The notes beneath the pieces are model-generated. The model made no database searches. It saw only the letters and a program-made list of their open reading frames with translations, and was not told where the DNA came from. Positions 16,576-64,000 of a DNA stretch of 64,000 nt are shown here, piece by piece. The stretch is taken from positions 5,125 through 69,124 of the forward strand of contig PLZU01000021.1 in NCBI GenBank assembly GCA_003152275.1, written 5' to 3'. Source of the stretch: Actinomycetota bacterium. Lineage in GTDB: Bacteria; Actinomycetota; Thermoleophilia; Gaiellales; Gaiellaceae. Numbering within the stretch: position 1 is the stretch's first letter; each line of letters begins with the position of its first letter. A program made the translations under genes and the position numbers.

Positions 16576-17934
16576 GTGATTCCGCAGCGGCGGACGGCGC
16601 TCATCTCCGTGCTGGCCGCGATCGCTCTGATCGGGCTGAAGCTCGGGACGGGCATCGCGACGCACAGCCTCGGCCTCCTCTCGGAGGCCGCCCACTCGGG
16701 CACCGATCTCGTCGCCGCACTGCTGACGTTCTTCGCCGTCGGCGTCTCGGCTCGCCCCGCCGACGTCGGCCACCAGTACGGACACGGCAAGGCGGAGCAT
16801 CTCTCGGCGCTCGCAGAAGGCGCGATCCTCGTGATCGCGAGCCTCGTGATCGTCTGGCGCGCGATCGTGCGGCTCTCGGGGGGCGCGCATCATCACGTGA
16901 ACGTCACCTGGTGGGCGCTCCTTGTGATCGGAGTCGTGATCGCGCTCGATGTGGCGCGCACGATCGCTTCATGGCGTGCAGCGCGGCGCTACCACAGTGC
17001 TGCGCTGTCCTCGAACGCGCTGCACTTCGCGAGCGACCTCGGCGGCTCGCTCGCCGTGCTCGTAGGGCTGCTGCTCGTGCGCGACGGGTACCCGAATGCG
17101 GACTCGATCGCGGCGCTCTTCGTCGCCTGCATCGTGCTCGCCTCTGCGGTGCGCCTGATGCGCAGCAACGTCGGCGTGCTGATGGATCTCGTACCGACCG
17201 ACGCCGAGACGGCTGCGCGTGCGGCGATCGCGGGAATCGAGCCTGCCGTCGAGCTGCGGCGCCTCCGCATGCGGCAGGCCGCCGGCCGGGTGTTCGCCGA
17301 CGTCGTGATCGGCGTGTCGTACGACGCGGCGGTCGGGCAGGGTCACGCAGCCGCGAGCGCCGTCGAGCGCGCGCTCGAGTCAGCCTTGCCCGAAGCCGAC
17401 GTCGTCGTACATGTGGAGCCCATGGAGAGCGACGCAGCAGTGCGCGAACGCGCGCTCGCAGCCGCGCTCGGCGTGCCTCGCGTCCGCGAGGTACACAACG
17501 TGAGCGTGCTCGCGGTCGGATCGGGAAACGAGCTCTCGCTGCATCTAAAGCTCCCCGGCGACCTGTTGCTCGACGAAGCGCACCAGGTTGCCGAGCAGGT
17601 CGAGCGCGCGATCCTGGACGCGGTGCCCGAGCTCTCCGCCGTGCAGACACACCTCGAGCCGCTGGCCGAGGAGACGGCCGGAAAGCCCGCAGACAACGTC
17701 CCGGCCGACCGTGAGACCGTGGCGCAGATCGTGCGCGACGCCACCGGTGCCGATCCGGAGGAGCTGCACTTCGTCCGCATCGACGACGGTCTCGTCGCCT
17801 ACCTGACGGTTCGGCTCGGCGGTGCCACTGCGCTCGCGGACGCGCACGCGCGGGCGAGCGAGATCGAGGAGACGATCCGCAGCCGGCTTCCCGAGATCGC
17901 AGACGTGATCGTGCACACGGAACCGCTGCCGTGA
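16576..17934 (+). CDS. cation diffusion facilitator (CDF) transporter with three tandem C-terminal cytoplasmic domains
   Basis: HSLGLLSEAAHSGTDLVA and HFASDLGGS are TM metal-site motifs. Three consecutive approximately 75-aa repeats follow, each ending H-x-EP. GTG start with TACGCT 6 nt upstream. Confidence 0.85.
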   Translation: MIPQRRTALISVLAAIALIGLKLGTGIATHSLGLLSEAAHSGTDLVAALLTFFAVGVSARPADVGHQYGHGKAEHLSALAEGAILVIASLVIVWRAIVRLSGGAHHHVNVTWWALLVIGVVIALDVARTIASWRAARRYHSAALSSNALHFASDLGGSLAVLVGLLLVRDGYPNADSIAALFVACIVLASAVRLMRSNVGVLMDLVPTDAETAARAAIAGIEPAVELRRLRMRQAAGRVFADVVIGVSYDAAVGQGHAAASAVERALESALPEADVVVHVEPMESDAAVRERALAAALGVPRVREVHNVSVLAVGSGNELSLHLKLPGDLLLDEAHQVAEQVERAILDAVPELSAVQTHLEPLAEETAGKPADNVPADRETVAQIVRDATGADPEELHFVRIDDGLVAYLTVRLGGATALADAHARASEIEETIRSRLPEIADVIVHTEPLP

Positions 17935-63571: not shown

Positions 63572-63613
63572 GCCGGAGGCTAAGACGCGCTTCGCGACGC
63601 CTTAGCCTCCGGC
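63572..63613 (-). terminator. 13-bp stem hairpin embracing the peroxiredoxin stop codon
   Basis: GCCGGAGGCTAAG (63572-63584) pairs with CTTAGCCTCCGGC (63601-63613), with a 16-nt loop. The minus-strand TAA stop (63602-63604) lies inside the stem. Confidence 0.5.
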
Positions 63614-64000
63614 CCCAAACGCTCCGCCGGCCGCCGGCGACAAAGCTTTCGCAGCCTCGAGCAGCTCGTCGAAGTCTGGGAGCTCGGAGGCGTCGTAGGG
63701 CCACGCGCCGCGCACGACCCCCTCGCCGTCGACGAGAAACGCTGAGCGCGCGGAGACGTCTCTCATCCCGCGGAAGTCGACGGCGACGCCGAAGCCGCGT
63801 GTCGCTTCGGCGTTCCAGTCGGAGAGGAGCGGAAAGTCGAGGTCGAGCGCTTGCATCCAGGCAACGTGCGTCCAGGGCGAGTCGCGCGAGATCGCGTACG
63901 GCTGCACTCCGGCGGCGCGGAACTCCTCGCTCCTGTCACGCAGGAGCTCCATCTCGTTCGTTCAGGTTGACGACCAGTCGAACAAGTAGAAGAGGAGCAG
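63602..64000 (-). CDS. AhpE/Bcp-type 1-Cys peroxiredoxin, 5'-truncated by window edge, with in-frame TGA (63962-63964) at the peroxidatic Cys position (candidate selenoprotein, or pseudogene)
   Basis: Hand translation upstream of the track start (ATG 63952) gives LLLFYLFDWSST-TGA-TNE-MELLRDRSEEF... The rest (AISRDSPWTHVAW, FPLLSDW, SAFLVDGEGVVR) is Prx-like. Confidence 0.7.
63929..63947 (-). promoter_or_regulatory. SECIS-like stem-loop 14 nt downstream of the in-frame UGA
   Basis: Minus-strand RNA GCUCCUG-CGUGA-CAGGAGC: perfect 7-bp stem with a 5-nt loop containing GU. The loop starts 22 nt after the UGA. Confidence 0.4.

Follow-up and report, generated by a model that had tools for sequence, protein, structure and literature searches.

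Selenocysteine (Sec)-containing peroxiredoxins are an established family of bacterial selenoproteins, which has been verified experimentally in Eubacterium acidaminophilum and carries a TxxU motif (PMC13188914), and several independent Cys-to-Sec origins have been reported for peroxiredoxins (PMC1794560). According to a recent review, aerobes rarely retain selenoproteins (PMC13188914). Here we describe a candidate member of this family from a stretch of 64,000 nucleotides (nt) of an Actinomycetota bacterium of the Gaiellaceae (contig PLZU01000021.1, positions 5,125 to 69,124 of the forward strand, GenBank assembly GCA_003152275.1; hereafter the window). At its end, on the minus strand, the window holds a peroxiredoxin reading frame with an in-frame TGA at the position of the peroxidatic Cys. 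A sequence-only reading of this stretch had proposed a Sec-containing peroxiredoxin in place of an annotated 116-aa product, with a pseudogene as the alternative. The complete open reading frame (ORF), the conserved TGA and the hairpin linked to it all support the former proposal, and we consider it very probable that the locus belongs to a complete one-Sec peroxiredoxin gene of 164 codons, of which it holds the 3′ part and in which the UGA is read as selenocysteine, this being the residue that we infer to be inserted.

The predicted protein compares well with the described Sec-peroxiredoxins ('Prx', PF00578, T/SxxU; for example PrxU of E. acidaminophilum), with which it shares the AhpC/TSA fold, the S/T-x-x-U motif, an in-frame UGA followed by a stem-loop within the coding region, and the existence of Cys orthologues. 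It differs from PrxU in that it falls far below the cutoff of the PrxU model NF040737 (36.5 bits against a cutoff of 270), is short, contains no cysteine and is not of the typical 2-Cys type; moreover, the gene occurs in aerobic soil Actinomycetota rather than in anaerobes. No NCBIfam family, other selenoprotein models included, scored above its cutoff. The gene therefore belongs to the known Sec-peroxiredoxin kind, in a peroxiredoxin lineage distinct from PrxU.

Read on the minus strand, the frame has the sequence LLLFYLFDWSST-TGA-TNEMELLRDRSEEF, with the TGA at 63964-63962, continues beyond it as TNEMELLRDRSEEFRAAG and ends with a TAA at 63604-63602, while the list of ORFs of the window gives a 116-aa ORF at 63602-63952. 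Through the 116-aa product we located a 126-kb metagenome scaffold that extends the window (ENA ERZ28653421, WOOD18-1 scaffold_750; referred to as L001). On this scaffold the true ATG start is found 96 nt past the window edge, at L001 9857, and the gene occupies L001 9857-10351 as a full ORF of 164 codons, with the ATG 44 codons before the TGA and no second internal TGA. The positions given in the sequence-only reading for the ATG at 63952, the TGA and the hairpin proved correct to the base, and the extension that it had called for yielded a complete ORF with its own ATG, free of the further upstream stops or frameshifts that it had named as evidence against a selenoprotein. The coordinates of the features discussed here are collected in Table 1.

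Table 1. Positions of the peroxiredoxin gene, its predicted elements and neighbouring features (window coordinates unless L001 is named).
Feature	Position	Strand	Remarks
Peroxiredoxin gene, 3′ part, 399 nt	63602..64000	minus	codons 33-164 and TAA stop; Pfam AhpC-TSA
In-frame UGA, codon 45, at the peroxidatic Cys position	63962..63964	minus	inferred Sec codon
ATG of the 116-aa call	63950..63952	minus	internal Met codon (Met49) of the full protein
SECIS-type hairpin (predicted), GCUCCUG-CGUGA-CAGGAGC	63929..63947	minus	arms 63947-63941 and 63935-63929; apical loop 63940-63936
Near-invariant block, nt 17-35 from the U of UGA	63930..63948	minus	from per-site diversity; overlaps the hairpin
Long G+C-rich hairpin/palindrome spanning the TAA stop	63572..63613	minus (both strands)	-39 kcal/mol, z = -6.6
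YbdK-type carboxylate-amine / glutamate-cysteine ligase gene	L001 8639-9847	same as peroxiredoxin gene	passes the NF010039 cutoff

To place the TGA in an evolutionary context, we compared the locus with two sets of related loci, namely 80 species-representative loci from GTDB, mostly from metagenome-assembled genomes (MAGs) of Gaiellaceae, Gaiellales or Thermoleophilia, and 79 metagenome loci retrieved with a profile of the Cys form. Codon 45 is TGA in 79 of the 80 GTDB loci and TGC in one, and TGA in 77 of the 79 metagenome loci and TGC in two, so that combined, 156 of 159 related loci carry the TGA, down to approximately 40-65% identity at the protein level. The orthologue alignment at the Cys/TGA column, suggested in the sequence-only reading as a check, thus turned out in favour of the selenoprotein, with the hairpin block kept as well. 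An upstream start codon is present in all 80 GTDB orthologues (44-45 codons before the TGA in 79 of them, 50 in the remaining one), and the frame runs on for about 107 codons after the TGA with no other stop. As TGA is also the stop of 32 of the 79 called genes on this contig and terminates 10 of the 80 GTDB orthologues of the peroxiredoxin gene itself, it still functions as a stop and is not reassigned in this organism. One TGA-form locus (L029, JAGWRZ010000168.1) came from a MAG labelled Acidobacteriota, all others being from Gaiellaceae, Thermoleophilia or Actinomycetota; this contig is probably mis-binned.

The codon-level analyses were performed on 151 distinct TGA sequences, which are not assembly copies of one sequence. 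Over the 12 residues before the TGA the protein is invariant and its codons vary synonymously (for instance, Leu as CTG in 98 and CTC in 44 sequences, Tyr as TAC in 94 and TAT in 56), and on either side of the TGA the diversity is higher at the third codon position than at the first and second. The pN/pS ratio of the N-terminal part was 0.62, an uncorrected and saturated value that is weak evidence taken alone. At the protein level, relatives fall into two classes: full-length Cys forms of approximately 152-160 residues with 58-80% identity, and, accounting for about 40 of the best 120, fragments of 104-111 residues with 86-94% identity that all begin with MELLRDR. The latter are genes truncated in the same way by gene callers. 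Two further proteins from JGI, P0003 and P0009, have Trp at the Sec position; the DNA of P0003 (L162 187-189) reads TGA, and since the deposited protein is not obtained under genetic code 11, its translation evidently followed a code in which TGA stands for Trp.

With Cys substituted for the TGA codon, the fragment encoded in the window matched Pfam AhpC-TSA (PF00578) with 73.4 bits (cutoff 26; E = 2e-20). In alignments to solved peroxiredoxins, including AhpE of Mycobacterium tuberculosis, the TGA column coincides with the peroxidatic Cys, and it aligns also with the TGC of eight orthologues, which confirms the assignment made in the sequence-only reading. An AlphaFold2 model of the Cys orthologue P0002 (79% identical) had a predicted local distance difference test (pLDDT) score of 94.7 and template modelling (TM) scores of 0.81-0.91 against solved peroxiredoxins, the best fold match being Bcp4 of Sulfolobus solfataricus (0.91), with M. 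tuberculosis AhpE at 0.87 and M. tuberculosis BcpB at 0.86. Among the 151 Sec forms the Arg at +72 (Arg117) is invariant, and position -3 (Ser42 here) is Ser or Thr in every sequence. Alignment and modelling show the peroxiredoxin fold in the predicted protein, with the Ser/Thr at -3, the U at the Cys position and the Arg of the active site in place and Leu where the motif has Pro. The typical length is approximately 152 residues, against 164 in the window's copy, and Cys is entirely absent from 146 of the 151 Sec forms, implying a one-Sec mechanism.

The label 'AhpE-like', under which the protein had first been described, stands in part. The protein resembles AhpE of M. tuberculosis (PDB 1XXU, 4X0X) in length, in its actinobacterial host, in lacking a resolving Cys, in motifs near the active site (E-L-x-x-L-R-D and FPLLSD) and, judged from the P0002 model, in its fold. 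Unlike AhpE, however, to which it is 29% identical, it would carry Sec for Cys, and it has Leu for the Pro of the active-site motif. In a sequence search of solved structures, archaeal Prx (Prx6-type) and BCP chains gave E values of 4e-15 to 5e-14 versus 2e-9 for AhpE, so that by sequence, as well as by fold (Bcp4), BCP/PrxQ proteins are at least as close. From these sequence and model comparisons, the protein lies between the BCP/PrxQ and AhpE types and is not a demonstrated AhpE.

Downstream of the TGA we found the hairpin as it had been described in the sequence-only reading: a perfect 7-bp stem separated by 14 nt from the UGA, with a GU-containing apical loop beginning 22 nt past the UGA. 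In isolation it folds with -12.2 kcal/mol (z = -2.7), whereas in a 71-nt context the z-score is -0.85 and another fold is preferred. The hairpin sequence occurs only once in the window. Approximately 1.9% of all TGA triplets in the window precede a perfect 7-bp hairpin at similar spacing, and in a single sequence alone the hairpin is only suggestive. A longer hairpin, in which GGAGCUCCU pairs with AGGAGUUCC, was returned as the minimum free energy (MFE) structure of the single sequence and was rejected, as it scored worse than shuffled controls on an alignment of 145 sequences.

The comparative data, by contrast, place the candidate hairpin far beyond chance. In the 151 distinct TGA sequences, codons +5 to +10 (Glu-Leu-Leu-Arg-Asp-Arg) are each represented by one codon, GAG CUC CUG CGU GAC AGG. 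Elsewhere in the gene such single-codon columns account for 1 of 55 comparable conserved degenerate codons (Fisher p = 1.3e-7) and for none of 35 four- to six-fold degenerate columns, and the remaining conserved Arg positions of the gene seldom use CGU or AGG. In the near-invariant block the per-site diversity is at most 0.04 at 18 of the 19 positions, compared with 0.3-0.6 at neighbouring third positions; the exception is nt 34, a stem position at which A alternates with G (diversity 0.17). The motif CCUGCGUG..CAGG is present in 151/151 TGA forms, and the exact 15-nt core in 136/151 TGA forms versus 0/8 Cys forms (p = 6e-8). The RNAalifold consensus of 145 sequences is exactly the 7-bp hairpin with the CGUGA loop, with four invariant pairs; among the others, U:A is replaced 12 times by U:G and once, as a compensatory change, by C:G. 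Taken together, these comparisons show the hairpin to be under nucleotide-level selection that is strictly linked to the TGA. An extension of the lower stem (alignment columns 16-21 with 46-51), in which 76% of cells pair and which is lost in ATG-containing variants, is not claimed.

The codons flanking the TGA are likewise nearly fixed at their silent sites (ACC-UGA-ACG, 63962-63970, minus strand; columns 4-12 of alignment A3): ACC precedes the UGA in 141 of the 151 sequences, and the ACG after it is almost invariant. An effect of this codon context on Sec decoding or on the avoidance of termination is possible.

Published criteria for a bacterial Sec insertion sequence (bSECIS) are a loop of 3-9 nt, a stem of 4-16 bp, a G in the first two loop positions, a distance of 16-37 nt from the UGA and an MFE of -7.5 kcal/mol or below (PMC13188914). 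The predicted hairpin agrees with all of them, having a 5-nt loop, 7 bp, G-U at loop positions 2-3, a spacing of 21 nt and the stability given above. Placed beside the consensus model, its spacing and stability lie within the described range. With the element of E. coli fdhF, to whose geometry the hairpin had been likened in the sequence-only reading, there are both similarities and differences. The two are alike in lying in the coding region just 3′ of the UGA, at a spacing within the 16-37 nt range, and in having a small apical loop with G-U; the hairpin described here, however, has no bulged U, and its sequence is unrelated. In fdhF the GU lies one codon nearer to the UGA than it does here. 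Of the features by which a bacterial selenoprotein gene is recognized, a UGA at a Cys column, a stem-loop that fits the bSECIS model and conservation with coding constraint on both sides of the UGA are found at this locus, the genes of the Sec machinery being absent from the sequence searched, as described below.

The eight independent TGC orthologues (the listed Cys loci being L008, L084, L085, L165, L171, L172 and L173, and the listed Cys-form proteins P0002, P0007, P0012, P0022 and P0023) provide a natural comparison for the hairpin. They encode similar peptides, yet all eight are altered in the hairpin block, with 1-7 of its 21 nt changed and the CGU missing in seven, and the block appears to have decayed to differing degrees. 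The Cys form L084, which retains the entire stem and has a single change in the loop, looks like a recent Sec-to-Cys replacement. Sec and Cys forms share the same syntenic position and are therefore orthologues. In neighbour-joining bootstraps the Cys forms were monophyletic in 0 of 200 replicates and were scattered among the Sec forms, with 6-11 Sec/Cys switches. Because all Sec forms share one identical predicted SECIS and the Cys forms scatter, the data tentatively suggest that Sec arose once and was later replaced by Cys several times, keeping in mind the short alignment and the simple trees.

Several observations weigh against the interpretation as a Sec-peroxiredoxin gene. First, selA, selB and selD were not found in the window, in approximately 80 kb of the 126-kb contig or in the related loci, which amount to approximately 0.9 Mb. 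The E. coli proteins SelA, SelB and SelD gave no tblastn matches in the window and related loci (the SelD and SelB queries were confirmed against PDB 3U0O and 5LZB, the SelA query being unconfirmed), Pfam annotation of contig positions 20166-99931 revealed no sel genes, and ARAGORN detected no tRNA-Sec in the window or in any related locus. Second, at -7 the PxxxTxxC motif has Leu instead of Pro in 148 of the 151 sequences. Third, the hairpin matched no Rfam family, but a general model of the bacterial SECIS may be lacking from Rfam. Finally, since the stem hardly varies, covariation gives it thin support, and the case for the hairpin rests mainly on the invariance of silent sites.

The same absence of Sec machinery from the searched sequence leaves some room for recoding of the UGA, via the conserved hairpin, to a standard amino acid: a tRNA-Sec-like tRNA(Cys) might supply Cys together with a SelB-type factor, or near-cognate read-through might supply Trp. 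A nucleotide sequence alone cannot name the inserted residue, and unusual tRNAs related to tRNA-Sec have been described in soil metagenomes (PMC5389517). We nevertheless regard this explanation as improbable. An enzyme with Trp at its catalytic position would be inactive, and Cys is directly encodable; indeed, several lineages use TGC and then lost the hairpin. Furthermore, the element fits the bSECIS model, and Sec at the same position of a peroxiredoxin has experimental precedent.

Still less credible is that the TGA acts as a true stop, which would yield a 44-residue peptide and, by re-initiation, a separate C-terminal fragment of 116 aa. This is precisely how the gene caller splits the locus on L001, into a 44-aa and a 116-aa gene, and the MELLRDR fragments among the database relatives have the same form. 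A start codon at +4 is, however, found in just 68 of the 151 orthologues, most of the others having CTC or CTG there, and where it is missing another 12-83 codons pass before the next in-frame start. Judged from these orthologues, the 116-aa model is an accident of this variant, as the start at the Met49 position is confined to fewer than half of them. The fragment would, besides, include neither the catalytic residue nor the initial strands of the fold, protein conservation runs unbroken across the TGA, and termination leaves both the silent-site invariance after the TGA and its loss in the TGC forms unexplained. The third possibility, a pseudogene arisen by a TGC/TGT-to-TGA nonsense mutation, requires a single base change (TGC to TGA) and could not be told from a Sec codon in one sequence, but it has practically no probability left and we exclude it, given the same TGA in 156 of 159 related loci, with 151 of the TGA sequences distinct, an intact ORF with no other stops or frameshifts, and purifying selection on the protein on both sides of the TGA.

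Returning to the Sec-peroxiredoxin, we propose that the UGA at codon 45 would be read as selenocysteine, with the predicted hairpin 14 nt downstream acting as a bacterial SECIS that would recruit SelB with Sec-tRNA(Sec) to the ribosome. In keeping with peroxiredoxin chemistry, the selenolate of Sec45 would then attack the peroxide and be converted to a selenenic acid. As the protein contains no cysteine, an external thiol would be needed to recycle the Sec, for which thioredoxin or a small thiol are candidates, among them gamma-glutamylcysteine made by the adjacent ligase and a mycothiol/mycoredoxin system.

The surroundings of the gene are of interest in this respect. The stop codon of the ligase gene (Table 1) lies 9 nt before the peroxiredoxin ATG, and a ligase is found upstream on the same strand in 114 of the 121 loci with enough upstream sequence; the two genes are probably co-transcribed. 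Because this adjacency is conserved across the family, it may point to a gamma-glutamyl thiol being functionally connected with the recycling of the enzyme. Further upstream lie a Rid-family gene and a thioredoxin gene, the latter at a distance of about 3 kb, and fabI converges from the downstream side. The palindrome that spans the TAA stop is likely to act as a terminator in both directions where the peroxiredoxin gene and fabI converge; having no U-tract, it is missed by a simple terminator scan, and its Rfam matches were limited to sub-threshold miRNA families, which are spurious. A scan of the window for in-frame TGAs with coding-like flanks returned a sole other candidate, at 17382 on the minus strand (16960-17550), with an Arg/His-rich translation; it was rejected as a second selenoprotein, being a shadow frame antisense to the plus-strand gene at 16576-17934.

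No source was found that annotates the full-length selenoprotein, and our literature search yielded no paper that connects selenocysteine with Gaiellales or Thermoleophilia. The locus nonetheless points to the use of Sec in aerobic soil Actinomycetota. The public gene call is systematically wrong, and fragments lacking the catalytic residue have been deposited; a corrected annotation restores a predicted antioxidant enzyme to the proteomes of a very common soil lineage. The family, in which over 150 natural Sec sequences and eight Cys ones share a syntenic locus, also offers a test set for a SECIS under selection and for its decay after replacement by Cys.

In a broader sense, it is conceivable, though we hold this with less than even confidence, that the enzyme is a selenoprotein near-fixed in Gaiellaceae, which would imply a standing need for selenium, and that in its history Sec was gained once and then reverted to Cys several times independently, the SECIS decaying in turn. 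Change in the Sec-to-Cys direction has been reported as rare outside FdhA and SelD. A Sec gene near-fixed in an aerobic soil actinobacterial family would also be less expected, against the view expressed in PMC13188914. If true, selenium supply could matter for the culturing and the ecology of the Gaiellaceae, an abundant, mostly uncultured family of aerobic soil bacteria.

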